This document shows, one piece after another, positions 5,550 to 61,193 of a stretch of 64,000 nt of DNA; within the stretch, counting starts at the first letter, position 1, and every line of letters begins with the position of its first letter. This DNA is from Candidatus Curtissbacteria bacterium (GTDB lineage Bacteria; Patescibacteriota; Microgenomatia; Curtissbacterales; GWA2-41-24), in NCBI GenBank assembly GCA_016183325.1, contig JACPEV010000003.1, forward strand, positions 82,000-145,999, given 5' to 3'. The notes beneath the pieces are model-generated. The model worked only from the letters and a program-made list of their open reading frames with translations, ran no database searches and was not told the origin of the DNA. The translations under genes were made by a program, and so were the position numbers.

Positions 5550-6571
5550 TGTTTGTCGATACCCATGCGCATTTGGATTTCTGTGATGACATTGATGATT
5601 GGATTGAAAGAGCAAAAGAGGCGGGGGTTAGGAAGATTATTAATGTTGGGACTTCTATTGAGGCAAGCAAGAAAAGTGTTGAGATTGCAGAGAAGTATTC
5701 TGAAAATGGATCCCGAATCAAGTTCGGAATGACAAAAGAGGATGACTTTCAGATCTTCGCCTCAGTCGGAATTCATCCTCAAGACGGAAAAGGTGATGTT
5801 AAAAAGTTTGGCTCTTTGCTGCACTGTTTCGAAACGCTGAAGCAAATTGCAGAGTCGTCTAAGAAAGTGGTGGCGGTTGGAGAGACCGGACTCGACTATT
5901 ACTTAAAAACAACTGATCCTTCGACCCATTCGATGAACTCAGGGCAAGCAAACTCAGGACAAACAGCAAGGCAACTGACAACTGACAAGGAAAGGGAATT
6001 TCAAAGAAAACTTTTTACTGAACAAATAAAATTAGCGCGGGAACTAAACTTGCCGATTCTCGTCCACTGCCGTAATGCTTGGGATGAGATTTTCGAGATA
6101 ATTTCAAACGAGCATGATAGTCATCCTGAATTTATTTCAGGAACTAAAAAAAAGATTCCGAAACAAAACCAGATCCCGAAACCCATTCGGGTCGATAAAA
6201 TCAGACAAGTTCGGGATGACATGGTTCGGAATGACAGAGGTGGAGTTCGAGGTTTGTTCCATTCATGGACCGGGGATTGGGAAGCGGCGAAAAAGGCTTT
6301 GGATCTGGGATTTTATATTTCCTTTTCCGGAATTGTGACGTTTAAAAATGCGCCAAAGGTCGCAGAAGTGGCGAAAAAAGTGCCGCTTGATAGAATGTTA
6401 GTTGAGACGGACTCCCCTTTTCTTTCACCGGAACCTTATCGCGGAATGGAAAATGAGCCTAAAAATGTTATAATAACGGCTCAGTTTTTGGCCAAGCTTC
6501 GAGACATTCCCCTTGATACAATAGAGGATGCGACATCGCGGAATACACAAAGGTTGTTTAACATACAATAA
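5549..6571 (+). CDS. tatD: TatD-family metal-dependent DNase/hydrolase with an in-frame low-complexity insertion
   Basis: MFVDTHAHLDF start, HCRNAW, ETDSPFLSPEPYRG; the insertion around 5918-5960 carries the GC-rich repeat words. Confidence 0.8.
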   Translation: MFVDTHAHLDFCDDIDDWIERAKEAGVRKIINVGTSIEASKKSVEIAEKYSENGSRIKFGMTKEDDFQIFASVGIHPQDGKGDVKKFGSLLHCFETLKQIAESSKKVVAVGETGLDYYLKTTDPSTHSMNSGQANSGQTARQLTTDKEREFQRKLFTEQIKLARELNLPILVHCRNAWDEIFEIISNEHDSHPEFISGTKKKIPKQNQIPKPIRVDKIRQVRDDMVRNDRGGVRGLFHSWTGDWEAAKKALDLGFYISFSGIVTFKNAPKVAEVAKKVPLDRMLVETDSPFLSPEPYRGMENEPKNVIITAQFLAKLRDIPLDTIEDATSRNTQRLFNIQ

Positions 6572-6834
6572 ATCCGAAATACGCAGCACGAAATTAGTGC
6601 ATAAAGAAATTAGTTACTGGAAATTAGAAAATTGTAATGGAAAGTAGAAAATAGAAAATGGAGAATAAATTATAACTATTTTCCAATCTCAATTTTCCAT
6701 TTCCAATTTTGCGAAGCAAAACTTCGCTTTCCAGTTTCTAGAAACTATTTTCTAGAATACAGAATTGTTTCGTATTTCGGCCGGGGACTTTTTCCTGGAG
6801 TTTAATACTTTTTCCCGTCTGGGGATCGTTTTGG

Positions 6835-8211
6835 GTGCCACATTATGTTGCTTATTACATTATTCTTTTTGATATTTTGTGGTTTTATAAATCCGGATCT
6901 TTGGCGCTAACTTCCGTGATTTCTCATCTAAAGATGAACGCGGCAAAAAATTATGACTGGCTTGCGGATGCAAAACGCTTGCCAAACTTTAAAAAAATTC
7001 ACCACTTGATTGTGATTCCAACTTTTAAAGAACCTCTGCACACACTCGAGCGAGGTTTGGATTCTTGCGCAAGTCAGGATTTTCCCAAGAAACAGATTTC
7101 GGTTTGTTTGGCTTTTGAAGAACGGGAGGGAAATGATGCACATGAGAAGGCCAGAAAGCTTGCGGCTAAATACAAAAATAAATTCGCCAATCTCATTACT
7201 ACTTTTCATCCGGAGATCCCAAGTGAGGTTAAAGGTAAATCTTCGAATGAAGCATGGGCCGGGAAATATACCAAGAAGATTTTGGTTGATGTGCAAAAGA
7301 GAGATATAAATTACATCACGGTCACGTCAAAAGACGCGGATGGAGTTTTATCCGAGAAATTTCTTTCGGCTTTAACTTATCAATTTTTAACTTCCGAAAA
7401 TCGTCATTTACTTTTTTGGCAACCGGTTGTTCTTTATTACACGAATATTTGGAAGGTACCGGCGCCAATTAGGGTGATGAGCACTCTTGGCTCTGTTTGG
7501 CAAACTGCAATGAACACCAGGACAGACAAGCTGGTTAACTTTTCGATTTATTCAACATCCTTGAAACTTTTGGACGATGTTGGTTATTGGGATGTTGATG
7601 TGATTCCTGAGGATTTTAGAATTTTTTTCAAAAGCTATTTTGCAAAAAACGGGAAAGTGGAAGTCGATCCGATATTTTTGCCGGTTTATGCAGATGCGGC
7701 AGAATCGACAAGCTACATGAAATCGCTTGTTAATTTTTACGAACAGGAAAAAAGGTGGGCTTGGGGAGTTTCCGATGACGCTTATTTTCTTAAGAAGTGG
7801 ATAACTCATACTCATATTCCGTTTTGGCATAGAACTATTCGAGTTTTTAGAGTAATTGCGGACCATTTTTTGTGGCCGGTTAATTGGTTTGCGATAACAG
7901 TTGGTGCCAATATTCCGGTACTTTTAAATCCGCTTTTTGCACAAACTGTAATGGGGCAAAATCTGCCGAGAGTTTCGTTTGGAATTTTGACAATTTGCTG
8001 GCTATTTTTGGCGGTGATTCTGATTGTTGACATGAGACAGAGACCAAAACGCACTGAGAAGGTTTCAATTTTCCGTAAAATTTTAGCACCGGTGGAGTTT
8101 GTGCTTTTGCCAATTGTGACTTTAATTTTTTCGGCGCTACCGGGCATTGATGCCCACACCAGACTGATGCTGGGGAAGTACTTGGAGTATAGAGTAACAG
8201 AGAAAGTCTAG
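6835..8211 (+). CDS. GT2-like membrane glycosyltransferase (N-terminal GT-A domain plus C-terminal TM region)
   Basis: VIPTFKEP…, KDADGV (DxD-like), multiple C-terminal TM helices; the start may be the internal Met at ~6934. Confidence 0.5.
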   Translation: MPHYVAYYIILFDILWFYKSGSLALTSVISHLKMNAAKNYDWLADAKRLPNFKKIHHLIVIPTFKEPLHTLERGLDSCASQDFPKKQISVCLAFEEREGNDAHEKARKLAAKYKNKFANLITTFHPEIPSEVKGKSSNEAWAGKYTKKILVDVQKRDINYITVTSKDADGVLSEKFLSALTYQFLTSENRHLLFWQPVVLYYTNIWKVPAPIRVMSTLGSVWQTAMNTRTDKLVNFSIYSTSLKLLDDVGYWDVDVIPEDFRIFFKSYFAKNGKVEVDPIFLPVYADAAESTSYMKSLVNFYEQEKRWAWGVSDDAYFLKKWITHTHIPFWHRTIRVFRVIADHFLWPVNWFAITVGANIPVLLNPLFAQTVMGQNLPRVSFGILTICWLFLAVILIVDMRQRPKRTEKVSIFRKILAPVEFVLLPIVTLIFSALPGIDAHTRLMLGKYLEYRVTEKV

Positions 8212-9130: not shown

Positions 9131-10687
9131 ATGTTTCCCCTAACAGAGAATTATTTGACGCGTGGTTTTTGGGGTGATGAGGCGTGGACTTCGCTGATTT
9201 CGCAACTTCCGTATTTGCAAATGCTAAAAACCACGGCAGCGGATTTTCATCCCCCCGGATATTACACGGTGGTTGAGCTTTGGTATAAGGTTTTCCCGCC
9301 AACGGAAGTTTCGACAAGAATCGTTTCCATTGTTTTTTACTTTTTGACGATTTTTTTGGTTTATAAGCTTGCATCTCTTCTTATTAATTCCACCTCCGAG
9401 GAGCCCCCTTCGACTGCTTCGACTACGCTCAGTACGGGTTTGCTCAGGGCAAGCGAGCTCACCTCGGAGGTGAATAGGGATAAAGTTGAAGGGTCCAAGC
9501 TCGCACCTTGGGAGGTGATTAGTAAAAAAAGATTCTGGGGACTCTTGAGCGCAATAGTTGTCGCTGTTAATCCAATCTTTTTTACTTATGCGTTTGAAGC
9601 AAGGAACTATACGATGTTTGCATTTGCGTCTGTCGGATCTATTTATTTTTTGATTGGAATTTTGAACAAATCCACCTCCGAGGTGAAAAGTACTCCCACC
9701 TCGCAGGTGACTGGAGGTAAAGTTGAGGAGTCAAAGCTCGCACCTTGGGAGGTAAGTAGGGGTGGTGTTACTAATGTGATCTTTTTTATTCTTTTTTCAA
9801 CCTTAGGCATTTATACCCATTACTACATGTTTTTGACGCTTTTTGCACAGGGATTTTATATTGTACTTTTTCATCGAAAAATTCTTTTGAAAATGATCGG
9901 TATTTATGCAATCATCGGACTTTTATATTTGCCTTGGATGCCTTTTTTGTTGGGACAGCTAAAATCCGTCGGAAGCGGCTATTGGATCGGCCCAATAGAT
10001 GGGAAAACGCACTGGGAGGCAATTTTGCGCATACTTTCTGGAGAATTTGAAAATGGTTTTCGACCATTTTTATTGACACTTTCAATCGGGTTGATACTCA
10101 CAGGATTTTTTCAACATTTAAAAAAGAGGATATTGGCAAAAGCCTACATTTTGATTTGGTTTTGGGCGGTAGTGCCATTTATTCTGGCAACGTTACCAGG
10201 ACTTTCCATTAACGGTTTTAAATTACCCTTTCGACCAATTTTTTTCTGGAGATATTTGATCCCGGCTTCGGTACCCTTGTCGCTGATTATCTTGCAACCA
10301 CTGAGAACACTGAAATTGCAACCACTGAAAATACTGACATTAATCACTGTGATAGCACTGAGTTTGACTATAGATTATCTGACATTGACCCGCTATCCTT
10401 ACACTTTTCGCCAAGTTTATGAACAAAAAGTTTTGCCTGAAATTGCCTCTCGCGATAAAATAGTAACCGTTCTGCCTTCTTTCGCCGAAGTCCTTTACTA
10501 TCGAAATCGTTTTAGACTTGATAATGAACTAATAATTTTGCCAGAGGGAATAGTGCAATTTTCAGGGAAAAGTTTACTAGACGCATATGTGCAAAATGGA
10601 GTTGTAAAAATCGATGACAATCCGGCCGGAAGATATTTTGAGTTGAGACCAGGGCCGAGTATCGAAATGATAGAAAATAGTTTATAG
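9131..10687 (+). CDS. GT-C glycosyltransferase (GT39/ArnT/PMT-like) with two in-frame repeat-element insertions
   Basis: GDEAW DE-motif near the N-terminus and a polytopic membrane body; insertions at 9391-9472 and 9673-9709. Confidence 0.65.
   Translation: MFPLTENYLTRGFWGDEAWTSLISQLPYLQMLKTTAADFHPPGYYTVVELWYKVFPPTEVSTRIVSIVFYFLTIFLVYKLASLLINSTSEEPPSTASTTLSTGLLRASELTSEVNRDKVEGSKLAPWEVISKKRFWGLLSAIVVAVNPIFFTYAFEARNYTMFAFASVGSIYFLIGILNKSTSEVKSTPTSQVTGGKVEESKLAPWEVSRGGVTNVIFFILFSTLGIYTHYYMFLTLFAQGFYIVLFHRKILLKMIGIYAIIGLLYLPWMPFLLGQLKSVGSGYWIGPIDGKTHWEAILRILSGEFENGFRPFLLTLSIGLILTGFFQHLKKRILAKAYILIWFWAVVPFILATLPGLSINGFKLPFRPIFFWRYLIPASVPLSLIILQPLRTLKLQPLKILTLITVIALSLTIDYLTLTRYPYTFRQVYEQKVLPEIASRDKIVTVLPSFAEVLYYRNRFRLDNELIILPEGIVQFSGKSLLDAYVQNGVVKIDDNPAGRYFELRPGPSIEMIENSL
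9391..9472. repeat. 82-bp palindrome-terminated GC-rich element (CACCTCCGAGG…CCTCGGAGGTG), in-frame inside the GT-C gene
   Basis: Exact reverse complement of 37933-38014. Confidence 0.9.
9673..9709. repeat. 37-bp short derivative of the same element (cacctccgaggtgaaaagtactcccacctcgcaggtg)
   Basis: Near-identical to 37587-37623. Confidence 0.85.
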
Positions 10688-10800
10688 AAAGTGGAAAGAA
10701 GTAATGGACATTAGATAATAGAAATTGGACAATTTTCCAGTTTCCATTTTCCATAACCAATCTCTAGTTTCTAAAAACTAATTTCTTTTATGATTTACGG

Positions 10801-15313: not shown

Positions 15314-15766
15314 TTAGTTTGCTCGAATAGTAAATTCAATTGTTTGACCTTCGGCAGTAGCTTCTTCACCTGAGAAGAGGCTAATGGGAACTGAGGTTTT
15401 TTGGGGAACTGCGATTTTGGTGATTTGATTATCGAGATCTTCGCTGAAAAAGGGCTTGGCTTGGCCGGATGTGACGTCCAGTGAATAAGTTTGAGTTTGA
15501 TTGGTGGGATTATTGAGAATGAGGACTGAAAGAAAGGCTTGGGATGGGCCAAGTTTATCAAAGGAAATTTTATAGCGATCTTCTTGTTGTGATAAAGTCA
15601 TATCTGGGAATTTGTCGATTTGGGAAACTATTAGATATTTTGACTGGTTTTTGACTCCGGCCACTTTTGTAAAACTTGCGGCAAATAAAAGAGGTAGGGC
15701 AAGAATAGCAATTAAAATTAGGGTGGCGAAAAAGTTGGCAGTGATTTTGAGAAAATGATTATTCAT
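15314..15766 (-). CDS. secreted hypothetical protein
   Basis: N-terminal signal peptide/TM; no motifs. Confidence 0.45.
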   Translation of the reverse strand: MNNHFLKITANFFATLILIAILALPLLFAASFTKVAGVKNQSKYLIVSQIDKFPDMTLSQQEDRYKISFDKLGPSQAFLSVLILNNPTNQTQTYSLDVTSGQAKPFFSEDLDNQITKIAVPQKTSVPISLFSGEEATAEGQTIEFTIRAN

Positions 15767-15873
15767 TTTAAATTTCTAATTACTCTAATTTCTAATTTCT
15801 AAATAATATCCCAATTAATAAATTTCTAATTTTTAGGTCAATTAGAATAATTAGGTTAATTAGGTCAATTCTA

Positions 15874-19533: not shown

Positions 19534-19735
19534 TTTAGTTAAAGCTATTTACGTTCGATAATAGCTGAGAAATATTTTTTTGTAAAGCAGAGAAAAAATT
19601 CATATTAAATTTTGGGGGCAGATAAATGTTGCGGTCCTTCGACTCCGTTCTGCAAATGCAGAACTTCGCTCAGGATTGTGAACAGAAGACAAATTTATTA
19701 TTGGAATCTTTTCACAGTTTGTCAATGGGGAAATT

Positions 19736-19770
19736 AGAGCTTTTTGGTGTAGATGGCTTGGAGCAAGCCT
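19736..19770. repeat. ~35-bp direct repeat flanking the VapBC cassette (second copy at 20507-20541)
   Basis: gagctttttggtgtagatggcttggag(c/t)aagcct found on both sides. Confidence 0.8.
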
Positions 19771-20203
19771 AATTATCGTAATCTTTTAAACTTTTTACTA
19801 ATTTACTTTTTGACTTTTTGATTAAATTATCATCTGCGGTATATAGAGGAGATTTTAGATATTCAGCTAAAGCTACATAGGCTGCGTCATAAGAAGAAAT
19901 ATCAAGATCAATGGCTTTTTCAAGAGAAGTTTTAAATAAATCAACTGAAGAGTGCACAAGAAAGTTTAAATCAAGAAATCCCTGGTAGGCTTTGATCGCT
20001 ATATGTTTATTAATTCTTAAGCGTTTAATTGCTGTTTTTAGCAAATTGCTAACTTCATAAAAAATTAAGGTCGGTACTGATACGATCACTTTTCGATTGA
20101 CAAAATCTTCTTTTATTTTTAAAGCGTAACTTTTAAACGTTTCATCCGGGAGGAACCATTTAGCTATAACTGAAGAATCAAGAACTACATTTTTGACAAT
20201 CAC
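19769..20203 (-). CDS. vapC: PIN-domain toxin VapC
   Basis: LDSSVIAKWF…YDAAYVALA PIN pattern. Confidence 0.75.
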   Translation of the reverse strand: MIVKNVVLDSSVIAKWFLPDETFKSYALKIKEDFVNRKVIVSVPTLIFYEVSNLLKTAIKRLRINKHIAIKAYQGFLDLNFLVHSSVDLFKTSLEKAIDLDISSYDAAYVALAEYLKSPLYTADDNLIKKSKSKLVKSLKDYDN

Positions 20204-20798: not shown

Positions 20799-21845
20799 AT
20801 GTACACACCCAGGTTCACAATTACGCCTAAAATAACCCAAGATATAGAAAAAATAGGGGTAGTTTTTGGGTATTTTAGGGCAGTTCAACTTCCCGAAAAT
20901 TATAGAAGAGAGCTAGTATCGAAAGTGGCTGTAGAGACTGTCCACGCATCAACTGCAATTGAAGGGAATACCCTGACACAAAAACAAGTAGGTGAGGTCT
21001 TAAGTGGAATACCGGTAACCGCACAAGAAAAGGAAATAAAAGAGGTAGAAAACTACAATAAAGCCTTGGTAAGTATTGAAAAATTCGGTAGGCAAAAAGG
21101 CTTTAAGGTTGGTGAGCAAACTGTAAAGGGAATACACGCAACACTTCTAAAAGATATAGATAACGAGATTGCTGGTAAATATCGGACAAGGCAAGTATAT
21201 GTCGGGGATTATATGCCTCCAGAGCATTACAAAGTTCCAACTTTGGTGCAAGAATTGGTTTCTTGGATAAACAACCCAAATCCAGAAAACTTATCCCCAA
21301 TTTTACTTGCTGGTATTGCCCACTACCAATCCGTCGCCATCCATCCTTTTGAAGACGGCAATGGCAGGATAACAAGACTTTTAACGACCTTAATACTTAT
21401 CCAAAACGACTACGACATGGTTAGTTTTTTTGCCCCTGAAAGTTTTTACAACAGAAACAGAAAGGCATATTATGAGGCATTAAGTTCGGCTGATAAATAC
21501 GGAGTTCGTGGGCAACCAGACTTAACCAGATGGCTTGAGTATTTTGTGTCGGGCATGCTAATTGAGGCTGAAAGGGCAAAATCCAGGATAGAAGAAATGT
21601 TGCAAAAAAAAAGTACATTTGGCAGGCAGGACTATATAAGCGATAATCAAAGAAAAATACTCAAACTGGCTACCCAAAAAGGTACGATTAAAACGGCAGA
21701 TGTATTACAACTCACCGGTTTAAGCAGAAAAGGTGCCTACAACGCGGTTGAAAAACTGGTACACATTAGATTATTGGAAAGTGTTGGAGTAGGGAAAGGA
21801 ACATATTATAAAATTACAGATAAAGGATTGGAATATGTCAGATAG
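20799..21845 (+). CDS. fic: Fic-family protein (AMPylase-type) with a C-terminal winged-helix
   Basis: Canonical Fic motif HPFEDGNGRITR. Confidence 0.85.
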   Translation: MYTPRFTITPKITQDIEKIGVVFGYFRAVQLPENYRRELVSKVAVETVHASTAIEGNTLTQKQVGEVLSGIPVTAQEKEIKEVENYNKALVSIEKFGRQKGFKVGEQTVKGIHATLLKDIDNEIAGKYRTRQVYVGDYMPPEHYKVPTLVQELVSWINNPNPENLSPILLAGIAHYQSVAIHPFEDGNGRITRLLTTLILIQNDYDMVSFFAPESFYNRNRKAYYEALSSADKYGVRGQPDLTRWLEYFVSGMLIEAERAKSRIEEMLQKKSTFGRQDYISDNQRKILKLATQKGTIKTADVLQLTGLSRKGAYNAVEKLVHIRLLESVGVGKGTYYKITDKGLEYVR

Positions 21846-21950: not shown

Positions 21951-22400
21951 TTAATAAATGCTTCTTAAATATTGCAATAGCTCACCAGGAAGTATTACTC
22001 TAAGCCCGAAATCTTGTTGAATCTTTTCTATTTTATAATCCTTGGTATTGAAGGTAACTAAAAATTTTGCTTGAGCTGCTTTTGCTCCTGCTACGATATA
22101 AGCATCTTTAATGTCATTGGTGTAGCTGGCAAATCTATCCAAAATTTTCTCTTTGTCTAACTTTATTTTGATAATTTTTAATCTGGTTTTTAATATTCTT
22201 TCTAGCTTATTTTTATCAATTCCTAATTTATCAACAGTTCTATTCAGCTCTTCATGAGAAAAATTCGAGATAAAAGATCTTAAATCGGCATTATTCACAA
22301 TAAGATTGGAGGCACCGGTTTGTGAAAGCAGTGAAGAAATTACAACATCCGAATCGATAAAGACTTTTATTTGCAAGAAGGCCTTGCTTATTTTCGCCAC
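21951..22400 (-). CDS. PIN-domain toxin
   Basis: IDSDVVIS…DAYIVAGA…TFNTKDY. Confidence 0.7.
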   Translation of the reverse strand: MAKISKAFLQIKVFIDSDVVISSLLSQTGASNLIVNNADLRSFISNFSHEELNRTVDKLGIDKNKLERILKTRLKIIKIKLDKEKILDRFASYTNDIKDAYIVAGAKAAQAKFLVTFNTKDYKIEKIQQDFGLRVILPGELLQYLRSIY

Positions 22401-23562: not shown

Positions 23563-23806
23563 TTTCCATTTTCCATTTAGGGTGGGCATTGGGATAAAGT
23601 TAACACTTCGACTTCGCTCAGTGCAAGCTATGGTGATGGCAAAACGATAATCTAGGATTATTATGGGATTTGACTTTTAGGGTGAAATCTGCTAGAATTT
23701 GCCTTCGTAAAATTCCCACTATGGGTCGGCTTAGACGACCCATGATTCTCAGAAAGTTCTATTGTGGGATTTTACGTGGGCAAGTCAAACTTGCCTTTGA
23801 AAAAAC

Positions 23807-25828: not shown

Positions 25829-25962
25829 TACAGATTAAAAATAGAGATTAGTTAGTGGAAATTGGTAATGGAAATTAGAGATTAGAAATAAGAAAACTAT
25901 TTTCTAATTTCCATTTTCCATAACTATTTTCTACTTTCTAGTAACTAATTTCTATTATCAAT

Positions 25963-31093: not shown

Positions 31094-31301
31094 CCTTATA
31101 ATTACCAAAATGGCTAAAAATAAAAGCTGCAGGCAATAGCTCCCTAACAATTAAACTTGGGAAGTGGTTCGCCTGAGCTTGCCGTCGATGACTTGACGAA
31201 GGTTTGGGATAAGAGTGAGATTTTGGGCGAATATTGACCTATTTAACACAAGTTTATTCCAAGGGCTTGTGCAATTTATATAGATAAAACTCTTATCGAG
31301 G

Positions 31302-35278: not shown

Positions 35279-35348
35279 TTTTTAATTCTACAGTAGTAAA
35301 GGGAGATAGCAATAGACTCTAATATTGTCTTTGATGTAAAATACACAT

Positions 35349-36083: not shown

Positions 36084-36169
36084 CACTAATTTTCAATTTT
36101 TAATTTAAAATTTTTATTGAATTTTTATTTTTTTTAAAATTTTAAATATTTTAAATTTGATTTCAAATT

Positions 36170-39394: not shown

Positions 39395-39695
39395 ATTTTA
39401 GCACATGCTGCCTAAAAGAGCGTATAAATAAACGGAGCAACGCCGCTAGCTTGGGCAAAAATTAAAAGCAGGCCAAACACTAAAAGCACCACCACAAATG
39501 GGATCAAAAACCACAGCTTCGCTTTCCACAAAAATTCCAAGAGCTCTCCAGCTTCTCCGCTTCTTGAAAAAAATGATTTAAGAAATCTCATTTTTAAATT
39601 GATCTAATTAACCTAATTGCTCTAATTGGTCTAAATAATTTAGAAATTTGAAAATTTTGAAATTAATTAGAAATTAGAAATTAAAAATTAGAAAT

Positions 39696-41483: not shown

Positions 41484-41489
41484 CAGGAA

Positions 41490-41524
41490 AATTGAAAATT
41501 GAAAATTGAAAATTGAAAATTCAT
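41490..41524. repeat. (GAAAATT)x5 tandem repeat
   Basis: Read directly. Confidence 0.9.
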
Positions 41525-43308: not shown

Positions 43309-45188
43309 TAAATTAATTCTTTAAGATTTTTTGATATAACATCAAATTGCTTTGACAAAACCGACAATTGAGCCTCATCTTTTTTGCTCTGCGCTAATTT
43401 AATTTTCTTTGAAATTGCAGAAAGTCTTCTCTTACAAGACTCTTGCTTGATCCTTCTTGCTGTTTTTACCAGTTCTTGGGCACAAAGCTCTTTATCGGCA
43501 AAAGCGGGACTTATATTGACCAAATAAAGATTATCCACAAATCCGCTCAAGTTCTTTGGCAGTCCGATAAGTAACCTTTTTAAGCTTTTAGATTTAAGCT
43601 TAGAGTCTTTAATTATATCACGAACCCATTTCCAGAAATCGGCGGCTTCTTCACTGCCAAAGTCAGAAGGCTCAACTAATTTCAAAAAACTAAAGGTAGC
43701 TTCGTCCTGAAAAACAAAAAGGGCTAAAAAATATTCCTCTAGATTTAAAATATTTGTCTTATTTGAACTATCACTTTTTGACTCGGGACTTAGCATAGAA
43801 TAAAGATTACTTTGTTTTTTCTCCACAGCCGCTGCCACTAGAGATGTCTCAAGATCAAGTACCTTCGCTAGCTGGGAAATATAATGGGCTTTCACTAAAT
43901 CATCGGATATCTTTGAAATTATGGGCAGGATTTCCTGCCCAATTTTCTTTTTCCCTAAAGAAGTTCGCCCGTCATATCTTGCACTTGCCGACTCAATAAA
44001 ATAATCATACACATTAGCAGAGCTTCCAACTGCCTCCTTGAAACCGGCTGGGTCACTTTGAGCAAACTCATCTGGGTCCTTGTAGTTCCCAAGCCTTACC
44101 ACCTTTATACCCACCCCACTAATATCCAAAAGTTCGATACCGCGTCTTGCCGCCGCATCACCAGCCAAATCAGTGTCAAAACAAACAACCACACTCTCCG
44201 CAACCCTTGAAAGAATCACCGCTTGTTTTTGGGTCAAAGCTGTCCCTTTTGAAGCCACCACGTTTTCTAAACCAGCCTTGTAAGCGGAAAGAACGTCAAA
44301 TTCACCTTCAACTAAAATTGCCTCATTCTTATCCCTAATCGCTTTTCTGGTTACGTCCAAACCGAAAAGCAGGGAACCCTTATTAAAAATCGGCGTTTCA
44401 GGAGAATTGATATACTTTGGTTCCCGGACTTGTCCTGAGTCCTGAGCGGAGTCGAAGGGCCGAAGGGTTCTTCCTGAAAATCCTAAAACTGAGCCTCGAC
44501 TGTCCTTGAGAGGAAAAATCAACCTTTCCCTAAATCTATCGTAAAAACCACCACCTGGCCAGGTACGTGCCCCTGATGTCGATCGGGCAATAACCAGTCC
44601 CGCTGTTGCAAGGTCAGCTAAGTTAAACCCTCTTTTGGCGAAAAAATTTAATGTGTTGTCCCAGCCGGAAGGCGCATATCCAAGACCGAATTTCTCCCAC
44701 AAAGTCTGGGGTATTCCTCTTTTTGCAAGATACTTACGAGCCACTTCTCCAGCCGGATGTTTATTTAAGAGATGACTATAAAACTTTTCTGCCAAACTAT
44801 TGACAGCAAACAGTTTATCGCGGTCGCGATCACGATCTGTCGGTCGAAAAGCGGCCAGTTTCACTCCTGCTTTTTTTGCCAGTTCTTGTAAAGTCTCTCT
44901 GAATTCCCAACCCTCAATTTTTTCCAAAAATGTAAAAACGTCCCCATTCTCTCCGCATCCAAAACATTTCCAAACCTGCCTGTCTGGCGAAACCATAAAA
45001 GATGGCGTTTTTTCAGTGTGGAACGGACAAAGCCCAGCGTAATTTCTCCCGGCTTTCTTAAGAGGAAGATACGCAGAAATAACCTCCACTAAATCAACCT
45101 TGCTCTTGACCTCATCAACTTGCCTGCCCGCTGACCTGTCCGCCATAGCTTTAGCGACGGAGGAAACTTTAGTGAAAGAGGGGTCCAT
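43308..45188 (-). CDS. dnaG: DNA primase DnaG
   Basis: Zn-ribbon [23 protein letters not shown]; sits upstream of rpoD. Confidence 0.9.
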
Positions 45189-45523: not shown

Positions 45524-46057
45524 CTATTGTCTATCCTCAAATAACAGTTCTATCTTTGCCCTCGCTTTTCTCCACATCTCCTTCGTATCCTTGAAAGTCA
45601 GTCTGTCCTCAACTTCATCAATCGGCAGCCATGCATGATCGGAAACCTCAAACGCCGTCGTCGCATCTCCATCGCTTTTGTATCTCATTAAATAAAAAAC
45701 TACGGTCTTCAAAACCTTTTGTTTACCCGACGAAGCCCTGAGCGACTTGCCCTGAGTTCTATCGAAGGAAGTCGAAGGGGCGAAGTCAGGGCCCTCTTCC
45801 CAATAAAAATACTTCGTTTCTCCAGCCCTCTCAATTATCTCTCCTTTGACTCCTGTCTCCTCCTCAACCTCGCGCAAAGCCGTCTGTTCCTCACTCTCGT
45901 AAATCTCCCGATGCCCCTTTGGGAAATCCCAACCCTTATGCTTCGAATGCTGCGTCACCAAAACCTCAATCCCTCTTGTACCTTCCGTACCTTTTGTACT
46001 TCTCGTACTTTTTCTTATAACGATGCCCCCAGCACTGAAGATCCTTTTAATCGCCAC
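45524..46057 (-). CDS. NUDIX hydrolase with an in-frame repeat insertion
   Basis: Nudix box REVEEETG; insertion at 45731-45794. Confidence 0.8.
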   Translation of the reverse strand: MAIKRIFSAGGIVIRKSTRSTKGTEGTRGIEVLVTQHSKHKGWDFPKGHREIYESEEQTALREVEEETGVKGEIIERAGETKYFYWEEGPDFAPSTSFDRTQGKSLRASSGKQKVLKTVVFYLMRYKSDGDATTAFEVSDHAWLPIDEVEDRLTFKDTKEMWRKARAKIELLFEDRQ

Positions 46058-46120: not shown

Positions 46121-46411
46121 ATGCAAATACAACCAACTACCATCACTCAAAAAGGCCAAGTAACTATTCCAGCACCAGTCAGAAAGGCGTTGGGATTAAA
46201 AAGCGGTGATCAAGTAAAATTCATTCTCACTAAAAAGAAGGAGGCTAAAATCAAACCGGCCAAACGCTTTTCAATCATGTCTCTCTATGGTTCCTTAAAG
46301 GTTAAGGTGAAATACAAAGCGACTGATGACATTTACAAAATAATCAAACAAGAAGAACAAGCTTGGCCAGAAGCTGCCGTAGAGAGGGACCAAAAAAGCA
46401 AAATTCGATGA
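46121..46411 (+). CDS. AbrB/MazE-family antitoxin
   Basis: TQKGQVTIPAPVRKALGL. Confidence 0.7.
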   Translation: MQIQPTTITQKGQVTIPAPVRKALGLKSGDQVKFILTKKKEAKIKPAKRFSIMSLYGSLKVKVKYKATDDIYKIIKQEEQAWPEAAVERDQKSKIR

Positions 46412-46812
46412 TTTTTCTGGACACGAATATTATCCTTCGCTTTGTCCTTCAAGATCACCCCATTTACTCTAAAAAAGCGGCCAACATTTTTGCACAAATC
46501 GATCGGGGAAAAATCAGAATTTATCTTTCTTGGTTAGTAATTTTTGAAGCTGTGTTTGTACTACAAAATTCCCATAAACTTTCCAAGACAGAAATAACCG
46601 AAAAATTATTCCCAATGCTTCTTCTCAAAAATATCCTTTTCGAGAATAAAGATTTATTAAAAACCACTTTCGAATATTATGTTGATCGCAACATCAGCTT
46701 TGCCGATGCATATCACGCAGCTTTAATGGCCAAAAAAAAGATAAAGGAAATCTACTCTTTCGACCGCGATTTCGATAAATTTCCTCAAATCAGACGTTTA
46801 GAGAACCCCTAA
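46408..46812 (+). CDS. vapC: PIN-domain toxin VapC
   Basis: MIFLDTNIILRF…; start taken at the internal Met overlapping the antitoxin stop. Confidence 0.75.
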   Translation: MIFLDTNIILRFVLQDHPIYSKKAANIFAQIDRGKIRIYLSWLVIFEAVFVLQNSHKLSKTEITEKLFPMLLLKNILFENKDLLKTTFEYYVDRNISFADAYHAALMAKKKIKEIYSFDRDFDKFPQIRRLENP

Positions 46813-50480: not shown

Positions 50481-50507
50481 CAAGTTTACCCTGAGTTTAT
50501 CGAAGGG

Positions 50508-50580
50508 TGCGCCCGACAGGACTCGAACCTGTAACCGTTAGCTCCGCAAGCTAATGTTCTATCCAGTTGAACTACGGGCG
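50508..50580 (-). tRNA. tRNA-Arg (anticodon GCG as read)
   Basis: Acceptor GCGCCCG/CGGGCGC, anticodon stem TTAGC/GCTAA, loop TTGCGGA, T-loop TTCGAGT. Confidence 0.55.
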
Positions 50581-50749
50581 CAAATCGCGGCGCTGTAATT
50601 ATAGCTCAGTTGATAAATCTCCTCCATCCCCGCGCACTCGGAGGAATTTTTAAATAACAATATTAACAAAATATGCAACGATCATTGAATAAAATGTAAT
50701 TTTGGTCTACTTGGAAATTAGAAATTTGGAATTGAAAACTCCTCGAGTT

Positions 50750-53403: not shown

Positions 53404-53571
53404 AACTTTTTGCAAGAAAGTAAAATAAAGCATATTTAGGTTCCAAAACCATTTATAGTTATAGAAAAAGCAAAATCTGAAGCTGATAAAATTTTGTCCG
53501 AGTTAGAACTCGATGAATATGCGCACTTGACGGCCCAATTGGCCTCTATTTTCTCCCAAAATCTCACTCTG

Positions 53572-53656
53572 CGGAGAGGGTGGGATTCGAACCCACGGTA
53601 GCTTGCGCTACATTCGTTTTCAGGACGAACGCACTAGCCCACTATGCGACCTCTCC
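53572..53656 (-). tRNA. tRNA-Ser (anticodon TGA), type II
   Basis: Acceptor GGAGAGG/CCTCTCC, anticodon loop CCTGAAA (C33 is unusual), T-loop TTCGAAT. Confidence 0.6.
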
Positions 53657-53661
53657 AAGTG

Positions 53662-53745
53662 CGGAGGGTGTGGGAGTCGAACCCACTCTGGACTTTCGCC
53701 CAGCAAGTTTAGCAAACTTGTGCCTTACCGTCCGGCCCACCCTCC
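53662..53745 (-). tRNA. tRNA-Ser (anticodon GCT), type II
   Basis: Acceptor GGAGGGT/ACCCTCC, anticodon loop TTGCTAA, T-loop TTCGACT. Confidence 0.65.
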
Positions 53746-54731
53746 CAAAATGTATGATTTTTTAAAAAGAAACTCTTTTTAAAATTCCCTGTTCCAATTT
53801 CTTTAAGATAGCTCTTAACTTCGCTTTTATTATATAACCATACTTTATATCTACCATCATTCTTGGGCTTGTAACCTAGGCCCCTTAATCCTTCATGAAC
53901 AAAATCCAGAAGCGGCAAAGATCGATTCGTAAAAACAATCTTTGGATATGAATATAGCTTCCCATTTACTTTATAGCGATGCATCGCAAAACAACCGTCT
54001 GTATCAACTAAACCGCGAATGCATGCTTTAATATATTCAGGCTTCAACAAAATCCATTCTGGAACTCCAACTTGTAAAAGTACTTTATTACCTCTTCTGA
54101 GACCTTTTTGCTCTAGGTATTTTATCAGATTAATACTTGAAACCATAACTCTTACGACTTTCTGAGTTTTATGTCTAAATAGACTTGGTTTTAAACCAAA
54201 AAGTTTCTCTATTAAATCGCGCACATAAAAAACATACTCCTCATCAACTTCACTGTTCAGGTAGATAACACATTGAAAATTACTTAATCCTCCATCACCA
54301 AGTAAAATTCCAATAAATTCTGCTAAATTCTCGTTTTCCTCGGGAATATTTATGTTTTTCGCCAAATTTCCGAGAACTCTTCTTTTTTTAATTCCATTTA
54401 AACCGCCCCTTCTACGTCCTTCAGGAGTGCCCAAATCCCCATGCAATTTAAAACGAACCATAGCACCTTTGCGACATATCTCTAGTTTTCTAGCAAACCA
54501 GCGGTCAATTAAGATTTTCTCCTGTTCTGGAAAGAGAACTTCATATTTTTTTGCAAGCAACTTCACAGCTTCAGAAGGTGGGCACAACTTTTCCCTCCTC
54601 CAATCAAAAAGGGTTCTTCGATGCACACCCACTTCGTCTGCAAGCTGTTTCGGAGAAAAACCACTATTCCTAACTACTCGCTCAAAAAAGTCTCTCTGCT
54701 CTCCAGTTCTAAATAAAACTCTCTGTTTCAC
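53709..54731 (-). mobile_element. free-standing double-motif LAGLIDADG homing endonuclease with an N-terminal HTH; its 3' end runs into tRNA-Ser(GCT)
   Basis: Two LAGLIDADG motifs (LAEFIGILLGDGGL and IRGLVDTDGCF); the last ~12 codons are encoded by the 5' half of the tRNA gene. Confidence 0.75.
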
Positions 54732-56371: not shown

Positions 56372-57103
56372 TCATCCAAGCGCGACTGCCAATCCCCAAA
56401 CATCTTTTGCCCCGACTCGTTTTAGAACTTTACAGCATTCACTCATAGTAGCCCCGCTTGTATAGACATCATCCACTAACAAAATATTCTTGTCTCTAAT
56501 ATCAAAATTTAGCGGTTTACCATGAACCTGCTCGCCCTGAGCTTGTCGAATGGGCCGAAGCGAAAAAGCGCTTCTAACATTTTCTTTTCTTTTATCAGAC
56601 TTAAGTTCAACTTGAGGTCTTGTATACCTGTTTCTAACAAGCAAATCACTGTAGGGGTGCTTAAATCTTCTTGCCAGATCCTGACCAATCAGTTCTGCTT
56701 GGTTAAAACCTCGCCATCTTTTTCTCTTAATGTGAAGTGGTACCGGGACCAAAGTTGCATCGGGGGGAAAATCAAATTTCCATAAATTGCCAGCTACGAC
56801 ACTAACCAAAATCTTGCCAATATCATAAACCCATTTATATTTAATTTTCTGCACTGCTTTGGCTATTGCACCTCGATACCGACAGACTACAATCAATCCA
56901 TCCAATTGATACCGGCCACCACACCCTGGGTGCGTCCTCCCACCGATTGCTTGCCTCTGGCAAATAGGGCAAAGTGGCTTCTTTATAAATTCGATCTCAG
57001 AAAAACATTTTTTACAAATATACGCACCGAGGTTTCCGCAGGAAACACAGCGCTTGGGGAAAAGAAAATCAAGCAAAAAGTTCATAGTTGATTCCACTAC
57101 CAA
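56372..57103 (-). CDS. comFC: ComF-family phosphoribosyltransferase-domain protein
   Basis: Two CxxC pairs at the N-terminus and a PRTase motif LLVDDVYTSGAT. Confidence 0.75.
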   Translation of the reverse strand: MVVESTMNFLLDFLFPKRCVSCGNLGAYICKKCFSEIEFIKKPLCPICQRQAIGGRTHPGCGGRYQLDGLIVVCRYRGAIAKAVQKIKYKWVYDIGKILVSVVAGNLWKFDFPPDATLVPVPLHIKRKRWRGFNQAELIGQDLARRFKHPYSDLLVRNRYTRPQVELKSDKRKENVRSAFSLRPIRQAQGEQVHGKPLNFDIRDKNILLVDDVYTSGATMSECCKVLKRVGAKDVWGLAVALG

Positions 57104-57135
57104 CTAAAAAGGTCTCCTTCGGGAGACCTTTTTCT
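57104..57135. terminator. bidirectional rho-independent terminator (AAAAAGGTCTCC-TTCG-GGAGACCTTTTT)
   Basis: 7-bp GC stem, UUCG tetraloop, A-run and T-run on either side. Confidence 0.8.
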
Positions 57136-57972
57136 GTGGAGATGGCCGGGTATGGCCCGGCGTCCAAGATAAACTTATCAAAAACTTCTACAAGCTTAGT
57201 TAATCTTTAAAATCTCGCCTCACCTCTTTGTCGATTAACAAACGGAAACAAGGCAAAGATCTAAATTTCAGGCTAAGGTTAGATCAAAACCAAAGTCCTA
57301 CTCTCGGCTAAGTTTGTGCCCCAAATAACCTCACCGAGAAAAGGTTAAAGAGACAAGCTCAAAGCTTAAGCTTATGCAAAAGCTAGAGCTGGACTTGGGC
57401 TAAAGGTTTCCCTCAAAGCCGCAAGACCTCGTGCAAATAAGTTTCTTGCACTTAAATTTGATTCAAAGCTTGACGCACTTTAGAATCGTATTCGGCTTGC
57501 AGTTTTTAATGTGCTATCCTGTCGAAACAATACATCCCCGTACTTTAAGGAGACAACTTGCGGTTTTCTCCCTACGGGTCGATCTTTTAGATCAGACCTT
57601 AATATTACTCTTTCCCTTTAAAGGATAAATTTAGACTGGCGGAGCCAGATTTAAATTTATCTTGAAGAACAAAAACAAATTATAGCAGTGTTTGGCCTCA
57701 AAAGCAAATTTTTGGAGTGTCGTAACTCTTACAAAGTCGGTGGTTGGTGATATGGATGCATTTGGTCTGTTTGGTTTTAACAGACTGAGGCGATCTGATC
57801 AAACCTGTGCATGCCTGTATACTGAGTCAGAAAGAAGAAGTTTAAGACCGCTTCTTGTGATTTAAATCCCTTTGTTGTTTTGTACCTGATCTTACTTCTG
57901 CCAATTGCTCTTTCCGTGGCATTGTTGGTTGTGGGCAAATCATCTCTTGGATGTTTAAGGTATGCTGTATAG

Positions 57973-58469: not shown

Positions 58470-58730
58470 TCACTCGCTAACGGAACGGTGAAGGATTGAG
58501 GAAACTAGGGTTTGATACGGAATTCCTTCTCGGACTGCTCTGGCTTTTATTTTATGTAAGTCACGCTCCGTAAGCCTAATATTAATATTCCTTGTTTTAT
58601 TAAGAGTGTTTCTGGCATAAGCTTGGTAAAGCTTCTTCGCCTTGGTGAAGTTTTTAATACTTTTCCATTCTCCTGCCTCGAATTCTCTTAAAAGTTCCTC
58701 TTCTTCTTTATCTAACTCAAAGTATTTCAT
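58470..58730 (-). CDS. brnA: BrnA-like RHH antitoxin
   Basis: C-terminal INIRLTERDLHKIKARAVREGIPYQTLVSSILH. Confidence 0.65.
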   Translation of the reverse strand: MKYFELDKEEEELLREFEAGEWKSIKNFTKAKKLYQAYARNTLNKTRNINIRLTERDLHKIKARAVREGIPYQTLVSSILHRSVSE

Positions 58731-59014: not shown

Positions 59015-59363
59015 TTATAAATATTATGACAAAAGATATGATTTGTCAATTATCGAAGACATACGTAACTACTCACCATTCTGATGTTGTAATTATTGTT
59101 CGAGGCTAAAAGCCGAGAACTACAAACAGATTAGACTTCTCGCTTACGCTCGAAGAATACAATCGTATCAGTTATTGTGAACTCTTACAGACATACATGT
59201 TCACTTATCAACAAAATTATTCACTGAGCGAGCGTCAGCAAGTCGAAGTATTCCCCCAGTTATGCCTTCCCTTCGACTCCGCTCAGGGTAAACTAGCTCA
59301 GGTAATAATTATTTTGCAGAATGGTGGATACTTACATAATTAAGTATTAACTTAATTAAGTAA

Positions 59364-60206: not shown

Positions 60207-60221
60207 ATAATAGTCAATATC

Positions 60222-61193
60222 ATGCAAAAAATCACACCACATTTGTGGTTCGACAAAGAAGCCAAGGAAGCGGCCGAGTTTTATACCTCCGTTTTCCCGA
60301 ACTCAAAGATAACGAACATAACCACGCTCCACGATACGCCGTCGGGCTCGGTGGAGATTGTTTCGTTTGTGCTTTCGAGACAGGCCTTCATGGCAATTTC
60401 TGCTGGCCCGCTTTTTAAATTCAATCCATCCATCTCATCCCATGTTAAATGCAAAACGAAAGATGAAGTCGATGCATTATGGAAAAAGCTCTCAAAAGGC
60501 GGCATCATCCTCATGGAGCTTGGAAAATATCCGTGGAGCGAAAAGTATGGCTGGCTACAGGACAAGTACGGCCTTTCGTGGCAGATAATTTTTGTGGGTG
60601 AGGGTGAGATAAAGCAAAAAATTACTCCAGTACTCATGTTTGTCGGCGATGTGTGCGGAAAGGCAGAAGAAGCGGTCAATTTTTACACATCAGTGTTCAA
60701 AAATGCCCCCTTCGACTCTGCTCAGGCCTTCGGCTCTGAGGTCTTCGACCGTGAGGCTCAGACCGAATCGGCTCAGGCTCGAAGAGGCGTATCGAAAGTT
60801 GGCAATATCATCCGCTACGGCAAAGGTGAGGAACCAGACAGGCAAGGTTCATTAAAATACGCCGCTTTCACACTTGAAGGCCAGGAGTTTGGGGCTATGG
60901 ACAGCGCTCATAAACACAACTTTACCTTCAACGAAGCTATTTCCTTTATGGTGTACTGTGAAACTCAAAAAGGAGTGGACTACTTTTGGGAAAAGCTCTC
61001 CGCGGTTCCCGAAGCAGAGCAATGCGGCTGGCTCAAGGACAAATACGGTTTGTCTTGGCAGATCGTCCCCACTGCTCTGGGCAAGATGATGACAGACGGC
61101 AGCAAAGAGCAAATTGATCGCGTAACGCAGGCGTTCTTGCCGATGAAAAAGTTTGATATTGCAAAATTAAAGAAAGCCTACGAAGGGAGGTGA
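60222..61193 (+). CDS. tandem-domain VOC/PhnB-like protein with an in-frame repeat insertion
   Basis: Two copies of the PHLWFD…KYGLSWQI module; insertion at 60706-60786. Confidence 0.7.
   Translation: MQKITPHLWFDKEAKEAAEFYTSVFPNSKITNITTLHDTPSGSVEIVSFVLSRQAFMAISAGPLFKFNPSISSHVKCKTKDEVDALWKKLSKGGIILMELGKYPWSEKYGWLQDKYGLSWQIIFVGEGEIKQKITPVLMFVGDVCGKAEEAVNFYTSVFKNAPFDSAQAFGSEVFDREAQTESAQARRGVSKVGNIIRYGKGEEPDRQGSLKYAAFTLEGQEFGAMDSAHKHNFTFNEAISFMVYCETQKGVDYFWEKLSAVPEAEQCGWLKDKYGLSWQIVPTALGKMMTDGSKEQIDRVTQAFLPMKKFDIAKLKKAYEGR

Follow-up and report, generated by a model that had tools for sequence, protein, structure and literature searches.

Short GC-rich hairpin repeats in genes and spacers of a Candidatus Curtissbacteria genome, probably REP- or RPE-like palindromic elements

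Background

Are short repeats that occur both between genes and in frame within them the traces of mobile DNA, or do they belong to the genes and spacers in which they are found? This question is raised by a stretch of 64,000 nt from a Candidatus Curtissbacteria bacterium (Patescibacteriota; assembly GCA_016183325.1, contig JACPEV010000003.1, positions 82,000 to 145,999), here called the window, which has a G+C content of about 40% and is interspersed with small modules richer in G+C than the surrounding genome. An earlier note, made from the sequence and its open reading frames (ORFs), had described these modules as one family of mini-repeats, scattered between genes and in frame in at least eight of them, and had suggested an active or recently active miniature element. 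Palindromic repeats within genes have precedents. In-frame copies are documented for the Rickettsia palindromic elements (RPEs) and for the repetitive extragenic palindromes (REPs) of several species (PMC3733652), and REPs inserted in frame are reported for genes of REP-associated tyrosine transposases (RAYTs) of subclass 2.4 (PMC6006769). All statements made here on abundance, orientation and gene counts for the host genome refer to the 64-kb window only.

Results

The words by which the modules had been recognised are present at the coordinates given for them, and they are genuinely enriched. CCTGAGC occurs 14 times (4.7 expected) and GTCGAAGG 11 times (1.3 expected), numbers which in each case none of 100 shuffles reached. 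An unbiased k-mer scan under a third-order Markov model placed CCTTCGACT (9 occurrences against 0.48 expected), CCCTTCGACT (6 against 0.09) and CACCTCCGAG (7 against 0.06) among the most over-represented words of the entire window. These k-mer statistics were used instead of a scan for GC islands, which was uninformative since too many islands appear at 40% GC.

For an independent detection a covariance model, R1, was trained solely on copies from unrelated viral contigs and run without filters. It recovered copies in the window far above chance, with 11 matches at E<0.01 (at 59265, 23600, 44436, 9411, 37967, 3962, 2393, 60737, 50485, 60709 and 45746) and weaker ones at 739, 56531, 59218, 5913 and 19636. 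The matches coincide with 13 of the 15 loci listed earlier and add two further ones, at 3962–3989 within the gene for methionyl-tRNA synthetase (MetRS) and at 2393–2419 in an intergenic position; the listed locus 31170–31202 was not detected by R1 and is left unsupported. Nine of the 16 matches lie within ORFs, distributed over eight genes. The gene names given earlier were confirmed by Pfam (TatD_DNase, PMT_2 or GT39-like, YfhO, DnaG, NUDIX, a ComFC-type phosphoribosyltransferase and a two-domain 3-dmu-9_3-mt/VOC protein). Each of the seven host ORFs on the list is open and reads through the copies, yielding the low-complexity peptides that had been quoted, and the number of eight is reached with MetRS, which was not on the list. 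At the gathering threshold of Rfam 15 the window yields tRNAs and tmRNA only, no family for the hairpin unit; a literature search returned no paper carrying the motif or the peptides of the inserts, and searches on repeats in the candidate phyla radiation (CPR) returned REP/RAYT papers only.

The repeat unit has about 25 nt. It consists of a 4–8 bp stem, the sequence of which covaries between copies, around a nearly invariant 12-nt apex GAGCGNAGYCGA, that is G-A-G-C-G-N-A-G-Y-C-G-A, with N as the only free apex position. On the apex strand the order is a weak 5' tag (GTCA, CTTG or TGYC), a free stem, GAGCGNAGYCGA and the stem partner; the opposite strand reads CCCTTCGAC-TNC-GCTCAGGG-CAAGC. In IMG/VR the pattern CCTTCGACNNNGCTCAGGG is found on at least 120 contigs with G+C contents from 31% to 73%, and the complement of the viral-contig motif is CCCT-GAGCGNAGTCGA-AGGG. 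The nominally free bases of the pattern are not free: among the matches listed, TTC accounts for 36, TAC for 26, TCC for 26 and TGC for 11 of 133. Bystander copies on the viral contigs, which had not been selected by the pattern, keep the 12-nt centre, and their flanks are complementary yet different (GGCT/AGCC, TGCT/AGCA, CGGT/ACCG, CACT/AGTG, ATTCT/AGAAT, TTCACT/AGTGAA, GTTTC/GAAAC). As an unbiased test of the stem, the centre-only pattern CTGAGCGNAGTCGAAG was searched with one genome per species, giving at least 120 rows. Among the matches listed, 107 of 141 have two or more further Watson-Crick pairs, against about 6% by chance, and their stems are varied (CC/GG, TC/GA, TG/CA, CA/TG, GG/CC, GC/GC, TA/TA). 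Complementary flanks of varied sequence around a fixed centre identify the unit as a hairpin in which the stem is free and the 12-nt apex conserved. Stem G.T wobbles number 26 on the apex strand and 6 on the complement (p = 5e-4), so that pairing is preserved on one of the strands; a single-stranded form is implied by this. The sequence information reaches four positions further to the 5' side (GTCA, CTTG or TGYC) than to the 3' side, where there is none beyond +3, and positions -6 to -3 carry a weak [C/G]T[C/T][A/G] signal, not GTAG. Thus, the unit carries a one-sided tag, as REPs do. A relationship to a tRNA T-arm or a hammerhead was considered and dropped since the required complementary or core positions are absent.

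Whether the in-frame copies are true insertions was checked against homologues for six of the host genes (those for TatD, YfhO, DnaG, NUDIX, MetRS and the VOC protein). In alignments to solved TatD structures, residues of about 52–66, 121–148 and 189–233 of the query remain unmatched. The primase structures 2au3 and 5vaz have gaps of 9–10 residues at the dnaG insert, residues 90–112 of the NUDIX protein fall between the adjacent residues 73 and 74 of PDB 3i7u, and MetRS compared with PDB 2csx shows an 8-residue gap exactly at the insert. In the VOC protein the comparison can be made internally: domain 1 has FYTSVFPN-SK, domain 2 FYTSVFKN-[28 aa]-SK. An AlphaFold model of TatD (predicted template modelling score 0.79) has a per-residue confidence (pLDDT) below 50 only at residues 54–63, 123–139 and 191–229, which are the inserts. 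Also most of the 27 TatD and 54 YfhO orthologues from related Curtissbacteria are empty at the insert sites, and others bear different modules at the identical loop (KPFDSAQGQ, RPFDYAQGQ, PAGKAGL, HPELxSGS..VRND, SFPRKRES); TatD orthologues span 256 to 332 residues. The protein collection held no close strain variants of the host species, the nearest orthologues being 58–67% identical, and pairs of filled and empty sites were therefore taken from other Curtissbacteria. The protein with the NUDIX insert is identical on 7 independently assembled contigs, and the CTP synthase neighbourhood recurs on 6 contigs.

The strongest single argument against conservation at the protein level comes from one composite of 84 nt. 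The segment 9389–9472 is the reverse complement of 37933–38016 with 100% identity over 84 nt and unrelated flanks, and this same DNA is read as STSEEPPSTAST... in GT39 and as HLRGAPFDCFDYAQ... in YfhO, in two frames and with unrelated peptides. Across the genes all three sense frames are in use (PFDSAQ, PSTSLR, LRLPST).

The modules turn over rapidly, in agreement with the recent activity that had been suggested: related genomes 81–98% identical differ in the presence or absence of modules. Three YfhO genes with 81–89% DNA identity differ by five module insertions or deletions. At one of these sites the empty allele reads ..ctca|AAGCtttc and the filled ones AAGC-CCTTCGAC....CAGGRC-AAGCtttc. 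A 66-nt nested doublet and an 18-nt hairpin of the GCGAAGC type distinguish two loci whose identity over 1.8 kb is otherwise 98.4%. The 18-nt hairpin (L246, about 1000–1060) sits exactly between two GTGAAYC heptamers, both of which the empty allele (L245) keeps in tandem; they could be an excision footprint or a duplication that existed before. The nested doublet propagates as such: a near-identical version of about 50 nt is common to the window NUDIX gene, to TatD and YfhO genes of other genomes and to different genes on 8 metagenome contigs.

Such nesting is frequent. In the NUDIX gene, GCCCT-GAGCG-[ACTTG CCCTGAGTTCTATCGAAGG A]-AGTCGA-AGGG, one unit lies inside the apex of another, which explains the 'AABB' word order of many copies. 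At 19634 of the window, GAGC-GAA-[GTTCTGCATTTGCAGAAC]-GGA-GTCGA, the apex holds another small hairpin with three loop bases on both sides, and the layout GAGC-GNA-[hairpin]-GNA-GTCGA is found on unrelated viral contigs as well (L060, L033). Palindrome pairs bear class I units (the single units described above) between their halves, both in the 84-nt composite of the window and in the YfhO orthologue P0173. Nested apices together with palindrome pairs carrying inner units indicate that hairpin apices are preferred targets.

The orientation within genes is strict for class I. In 16 of 16 intragenic class I copies examined, the apex strand is antisense to the host gene. In all eight host genes of the window it is the mRNA that carries CCCUUCGAC..GCUCAGGG, and outside the window an antisense apex is found in a 520-aa ORF of a Saccharibacteria locus, in the YfhO of P0159, in the TatD of P0011 and in five genes on metagenome contigs. 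The antisense-orientation reading contains TGA in one of three frames; allowing for the resulting 3:2 frame bias, 16 of 16 would arise by chance with a probability of about 3e-4. Among 240 orthologues, no peptide derives from the antisense frames and 10 derive from sense frames. The mechanism of integration may lie behind the bias, or else selection that keeps the structured strand out of mRNA; in the window, gene strand is confounded with GC skew. For the same reason an orientation linked to replication is inseparable here from one linked to transcription.

As to the window itself, the cumulative GC skew has its maximum at about 35000–36200, where the gene orientation flips from mostly plus to mostly minus. 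This is the pattern expected of a replication terminus.

The apex core is widespread. Among the matches listed it occurs in Cyanobacteria, Bacteroidota, Spirochaetota, Alpha- and Gammaproteobacteria, Verrucomicrobiota, Acidobacteriota, Clostridia, Chloroflexota, Nitrospirota, Ignavibacteria, Zixibacteria and several Patescibacteria. The carriers in the scan include the cultured Henriciella marina, Treponema saccharophilum DSM 2985, Aequorivita sinensis and Algoriphagus sp. A second architecture, made of two inverted apex hairpins with GTCA/TGAC ends (class II), was seen in many phyla, too.

On four phage-like IMG/VR contigs (L107, L074, L064, L121) the apex forms the loop of hairpins with variable stems within a longer conserved repeat, AAGGGTGAATGTC...[hairpin]...ACAAACACGAAGTG, present several times per contig. 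This may be a phage-specific element built around the same core.

With regard to the individual copies, the modules had been taken as one family. They are real repeats; they fall, however, into at least three structural classes, namely single units (class I), GTCA...TGAC inverted-repeat elements (class II) and pairs of the palindrome CACCTCSGAGGTG. The simplest copies belong to class I. A single unit at 2393–2419 (+), CACCCTGAGTTTGTCGAAGGGTTAG, with an R1 E-value of 0.0011, lies in the gap before ORF 2450–2812 (-) and overlaps the predicted start of ORF 2173–2397 (-) by about 5 nt. The unit at 3962–3989 (-) (E = 4.9e-5) is in frame in the MetRS ORF 3442–4884 (+), which matches Pfam tRNA-synt_1g, and adds about 8 residues within TDPSTSLRTGK. 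Between divergent genes, the intergenic unit at 23600–23627 (-) has a covarying stem GCACT / AGTGT (E = 5e-8). At 44433–44470 (+) a unit TCCTGAGCGGAGTCGAAGGG with partial repeats is in frame in dnaG (E = 4e-7), another one at 50481–50511 (+) occupies the 24-nt spacer between tRNA-Ser and tRNA-Arg (E = 0.003), and a degenerate one at 56531–56565 (+) is in frame in comFC with the peptide FSLRPIRQAQGE (E = 0.095). The intergenic unit at 19634–19675 (-), GTTCTGCAAATGCAGAAC, has its apex interrupted by the second hairpin mentioned above, with the 3-nt loop kept on both sides of it (TCC...TTC), and gives a split R1 match (E = 0.66).

Several copies contain more than one unit. The nested doublet at 45731–45794 (+) is in frame in the NUDIX gene (peptide PDFAPSTSFDRTQGKSLRASSGK, E = 0.009). 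Two units plus variants at 60706–60786 (-) are in frame in the second 3-dmu-9_3-mt/VOC domain (peptide APFDSAQAFGSEVFDREAQTESAQARRG, E = 0.0016 and 0.0032). In the intergenic segment 59218–59302 two inverted units form a longer hairpin; R1 matches are at 59265–59292 (E = 4e-8) and, for the partner, at 59218–59254 (E = 0.35), and the fold of 59222–59302 has -13.3 kcal/mol (z = -3.0).

The tatD gene holds three modules in frame. A nested class I doublet at 5913–5960 (-), CCTTCGAC CCA TTCGATGAACTCAGGGCAAGC AAACTCAGGAC, encodes the peptide PSTHSMNSGQANSGQ and is weakly matched by R1 (E = 0.44); this site is empty in the orthologues P0002, P0004, P0027 and P0077. A half module of the class II type at 5708–5738 (..CCCGAATCAAGTTCGGAATGAC), read as SRIKFGMTK, is present, absent or variable among orthologues. 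The third, at 6120–6235, is a class II palindrome GTCATCC...GGATGAC of about 115 nt which makes up most of residues 189–233; its terminal inverted words pair, the predicted fold has -37 kcal/mol, and it is missing from most orthologues. The last two and the YfhO element 38319–38386, all intragenic and of the GTCA...TGAC kind, had been omitted from the earlier list. Directly after the doublet insert of tatD, at 5975–5990, a tandem heptamer CAACTGA CAACTGA (peptide QLTTD) is found, and the TatD orthologues P0037, P0074 and P0099 vary by one heptamer unit, LTTDNE being kept or missing between proteins that are 95% identical. A separate repeat of the slippage type is thereby indicated for this loop.

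The intergenic repeat listed at 640–765 turned out to be a larger GTCA...TGAC inverted-repeat element of the related class II, a palindrome similar to the inverted REP doublets called REPINs. It extends over 658–759, its termini GTCAT..../....ATGAC pair within 160 nt, and additional small hairpins are nested in both arms. The segment 640–765 folds with -38.4 kcal/mol (z = -8.6, none of 200 shuffles as good), and R1 gives a partial match at 739–752. Another class II palindrome, CGTCATTCTGG...CCAGAATGACG at 38319–38386, is in frame in YfhO (peptide VILGSETTPESAMKKDSGQARMT), in a loop that is mostly empty in orthologues, some of which have different modules there.

The two copies of the 84-nt composite, 9389–9472 (-) in frame in GT39/PMT_2 (R1 9411–9438, E = 2e-5) and the exact second copy 37933–38016 (+) in frame in YfhO (R1 37967–37994, E = 2e-5), consist of a palindrome CACCTCCGAGG, a nested class I doublet and a palindrome CCTCGGAGGTG, in this order in the GT39 copy. 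Their peptides are STSEEPPSTASTTLSTGLLRASELTSEV in GT39 and HLRGAPFDCFDYAQYGFAQGKRAHLGGV in YfhO, where the site is empty in orthologues. The loci 9673–9709 and 37587–37623 are indeed in-frame repeats, as had been claimed, but they lack the FD/AQG word and constitute the separate family of CACCTCSGAGGTG palindrome pairs. In GT39 the two palindromes are 11 nt apart, without an R1 match; the fold has -9.9 kcal/mol (z = -6.1), and the segment is 92% identical to 37588–37624. The YfhO pair (37587–37624, peptide HLRGVRTFHLGGD) occupies a site that is empty in most orthologues; P0173 has the same palindrome pair with a class I unit between its halves. Within GT39 a 63-nt segment reaching from the CACCTCSGAGGTG palindrome to CACCTTGGGAGGTG is duplicated (9460–9522 and 9697–9759, 84% identity; peptides NRDKVEGSKLAPWEV and TGGKVEESKLAPWEV), and the palindrome family seems to carry or seed such larger duplications.

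Other features of the window are listed here for completeness. A second, AT-rich repeat family of word arrays of the GAAATTA / TTTCTAATTTCCATTTTCC type, in both orientations, occupies many intergenic spacers (6603–6754, 10671–10791, 15758–15870, 25842–25958, 36088–36151, 39597–39696, 41488–41521, 50708–50738) and has no sequence relation to the GC-rich hairpins. Near the window start a segment 100–476 is duplicated at 1374–1749 (partly also at 2705–2803) with a spacing of about 1.27 kb and 90–100% identity. It holds an exact 44-nt GC-rich stretch (196–239 = 1470–1513), and the copies seem to be part of paralogous small membrane-protein-like ORFs on the minus strand without a Pfam match. Genes of the toxin-antitoxin type are unusually dense, with two Fic/DOC and three PIN-domain ORFs per 64 kb (1796–2176, 19769–20203, 20799–21845, 21951–22400, 46363–46812), and matching Logan contigs also show a MazE/PIN pair and a YafQ-like toxin. 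The tmRNA gene is at 57134–57539 (-) (Rfam, 106 bits) and an SmpB gene about 1.1 kb beyond the right end of the window (L255, 4406–4843). A free-standing ORF at 53709–54731 (-), with an N-terminal helix-turn-helix (HTH) and a LAGLIDADG_3 domain, resembles homing endonucleases and adjoins a tRNA-Ser pair (53571–53745). No evidence connects this ORF with the repeats.

Discussion

Any explanation has to accommodate together the enrichment, the covariation of the hairpin, true insertion, the reading of one DNA segment in two frames, nesting, rapid turnover, the strand bias and the occurrence in many phyla. We consider it probable that the repeats are non-autonomous REP- or RPE-like miniature palindromic elements which are copied via a single-stranded hairpin and filtered by selection. 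Units occurring alone, as inverted pairs (the GTCA...TGAC elements), in tandem or nested would then give rise to new copies by copying and insertion of DNA and not by local slippage. Insertion would take place preferentially into the apices of existing hairpins and also at sites where 2–7 nt are identical or duplicated at the junction. The intermediate would be single-stranded DNA with the GAGCGNAGYCGA strand as the active one, and mobilisation would be provided in trans by an enzyme encoded elsewhere, for which an HUH/RAYT-like protein is the obvious candidate. In a genome as gene-dense as this one, selection would retain copies that are multiples of three and stop-free, that fall into loops at the surface or between helices and that are oriented such that all three frames are open; such surviving copies would be translated into short, disordered peptides.

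Several findings weigh against this explanation. No transposase, Y1_Tnp or HUH protein was found by Pfam among the 47 larger ORFs of the window, and the 5 kb past its right end hold neither a transposase nor further copies. A tblastn search of about 2 Mb of fetched loci with an approximate IS200 TnpA query gave no match either, which is a weak test. The junctions are inconsistent, with AAGC...AAGC, AGGC...AGGC, TC/TYC, one 7-nt repeat and nothing obvious in others; the first two of these would fit a target duplication as well as microhomology with the element end. The strand rule is broken outside class I, by a class II copy in P0156 and by a weak match in L192 (L122 1605, L192 7309). One and the same 12-nt apex is present in many phyla, unlike the classical REPs, which are lineage-specific.

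Finally, the proposed formation of a hairpin is supported by the covariation of the stem and not by nearest-neighbour energies. As DNA the unit folds at just -2 to -3 kcal/mol, no better than shuffles, and stability relative to shuffles is confined to composites (640–765, the palindrome pairs, 59222–59302). The mini-hairpin d(GCGAAGC) is known to be unusually stable. By analogy, C-GNA-G may form a GNA triloop flanked by tandem G.A pairs, and such a structure is predicted for the apex-strand oligonucleotide d(CCCTGAGCGAAGTCGAAGGG). A putative GNA triloop would explain why only N varies, and the low energies may be due to the fact that nearest-neighbour models do not capture structures of this kind.

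A more far-reaching variant is that the GAGCGNAGYCGA hairpin of about 25 nt represents a separate, pan-bacterial mobile element, possibly smaller than any other known, crossing phyla perhaps on phages and inserting single-stranded mini-hairpins into apices or exposed single-stranded DNA through a host-universal process or an unrecognised enzyme, not through a lineage-specific RAYT. We regard this as possible yet rather unlikely. If so, the strict antisense placement would record the integration strand and not merely selection.

It is also conceivable, although we think it unlikely, that no dedicated element exists and that the copies result from template switching or microhomology-mediated copying, in which a polymerase stalled at a hairpin jumps to another copy, copies 20–80 nt and returns; the junctions would be guided by hairpin apices and short microhomologies. 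The short and variable junction identities (AAGC, AGGC, TC, the 7-mer) without a fixed target duplication fit this well, as do the many partial or stuttered units and AABB word orders and the missing transposase in the window; and the CGTC-tagged REPs, too, 'apparently lack a dedicated transposase' (PMC3733652). What such copying leaves unexplained is a conserved 12-nt apex with a one-sided tag across phyla while the stems drift, as well as the G.T strand asymmetry. Furthermore, a donor is required whenever a coding site without repeats is entered for the first time, yet only 2–4 nt of homology would be available for priming. A conserved apex, covarying stems and strand-specific pairing are, on the other hand, hallmarks of a selected structure, and one may ask if the host maintains the hairpins for a function in cis, for instance to stabilise or terminate transcripts, to bind proteins or to signal DNA uptake, with the intragenic copies as tolerated by-products. 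Some copies in other genomes do lie inside terminator-like stems (e.g. L052), and the genome has competence genes (comFC). This appears improbable to us, as about half of the window copies are in ORFs, as insertions missing from orthologues, and in genes the structured strand is systematically antisense and hence not in the mRNA. The motif is, moreover, common to many phyla and viral contigs and has no Rfam family at the gathering threshold. Uptake signals in particular are confined to a lineage and come about through point mutations rather than insertions.

That the segments are selected features of the proteins, serving as flexible linkers or as disordered motifs for interaction and conserved in their amino acids, might be thought from the frame that is always kept, from their position in loops and from the recurrence of similar peptides at the same loop in several orthologues. 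The identical 84 nt read in two frames with unrelated peptides effectively refute this, all three sense frames are used across genes, copies are also found between genes and between tRNA genes, and most orthologues lack the inserts; we judge it very improbable. In accordance with this, solved homologues of TatD, DnaG, NUDIX and MetRS and most Curtissbacteria orthologues are without the segments, which was the comparison by which the earlier note had proposed to distinguish insertions from native sequence. An artefact of assembly or binning, with GC-rich foreign reads spliced into an AT-rich metagenome-assembled genome, would be in line with the higher G+C content of the modules and the occurrence of the same core in many taxa. 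It is hardly credible, given the NUDIX insert on 7 independently assembled contigs, the CTP synthase neighbourhood on 6, the preserved frames in eight genes and the same phenomenon in many independent assemblies of related genomes.

If the repeats are indeed REP- or RPE-like elements, how do they compare with the systems described before? With RPEs they share the character of selfish palindromes in a small, reduced genome, many of them lying in frame in ORFs that still look functional and adding peptide segments at tolerated positions, with no associated transposase known. RPEs have a length of about 100–150 bp and are alphaproteobacterial; here the unit has about 25 nt and composites 40–115 nt, and the apex GAGCGNAGYCGA is found across phyla, a comparison made by description and not by sequence. 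To our knowledge, neither a nesting of units in the apices of their own kind nor a strict sense-strand bias has been described for RPEs. The miniature transposable elements with inverted repeats known as MITEs, such as Correia/NEMIS, RUP and Nezha, are likewise non-autonomous and dispersed, with terminal inverted repeats (as in class II) and hairpin folds, and may be co-transcribed with genes or lie within them. They are, however, 70–300 bp long, derive from identifiable insertion sequences and have fixed target-site duplications, whereas our unit is far smaller, its junction repeats have 2–7 nt and no parent insertion sequence was found. The GC clusters and double-hairpin elements of fungal mitochondria offer another parallel as short GC-rich palindromes which invade a compact AT-rich genome, insert into one another and occasionally enter coding sequence. 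They are organellar and have no sequence relation to the hairpin described here, and we know of no conserved apex that they share with bacteria. Uptake signal sequences and DNA uptake sequences (USS/DUS) are short, over-represented motifs, with about one copy per few kb, which are found in genes and, as inverted pairs, between genes, arise by substitution and are lineage-specific; the motif studied here is brought in by insertion, folds as a covarying hairpin and is common to many phyla.

A further likeness is to the REP, BIME and REPIN sequences, which are mobilised by RAYTs (TnpA_REP), transposases of the Y1 HUH type whose genes usually have REPs on their flanks (PMC6006769, PMC3733652). These sequences are imperfect palindromes of 20–40 nt that carry their tag on a single side and often form inverted dimers. 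As in REPs, stems vary within a kept architecture, in-frame insertions in genes are reported and the single-stranded hairpin is the recognised form. The differences are that the tag is not GT[AG]G, that the loop is a conserved 12-mer and not 2–5 nt, that about half of the copies are intragenic while REPs are predominantly extragenic, that no RAYT gene is among the 47 window ORFs or in the 5 kb beyond the right end, and that classical REP families are lineage-specific while this core spans many phyla and viral contigs. Among REPs, the CGTC-tagged families of Di Nocera et al. 2013 (PMC3733652) are mostly alphaproteobacterial, form head-to-head dimers for the most part and have 8–9 bp stems, 4–5 nt loops and CCA tails, and RPE-4 and RPE-6 are classed with them. 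The likeness is limited to class II, in which a (C/T)GTC tag is followed by A/T and then by the stem, as in the YfhO element CGTCATTCTGG...CCAGAATGACG. Class II copies elsewhere start with CGTCA or TGTCA and form inverted dimers, and both kinds of repeat are found inside genes. Compared with the published description, our elements differ in their stems of 4–8 bp, the fixed 12-mer apex and the lack of a CCA tail.

Conclusion

What we rate as new are the very small unit, the apex conserved across phyla, the self-nesting, the strand rule and the heavy load in essential genes of a CPR genome. If our explanation is true, the proteins of Patescibacteria, including the essential primase, MetRS and TatD, have repeatedly been remodelled by selfish DNA, and orthologue lengths differ by up to 30% through inserts. 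This would matter for annotation, for the search for homologues, for the prediction of structures and for the amount of sequence counted as 'novel' in candidate phyla, and spurious ORFs or odd low-complexity peptides from metagenomes may often be repeat DNA in one frame. It would also provide a handle on how REP-type repeats without a dedicated transposase move, with a small and defined core, many public pairs of filled and empty sites and cultured carriers. A 12-nt apex that is kept across phyla while the stems drift would then suggest that a conserved partner binds it or that its DNA adopts a special structure.

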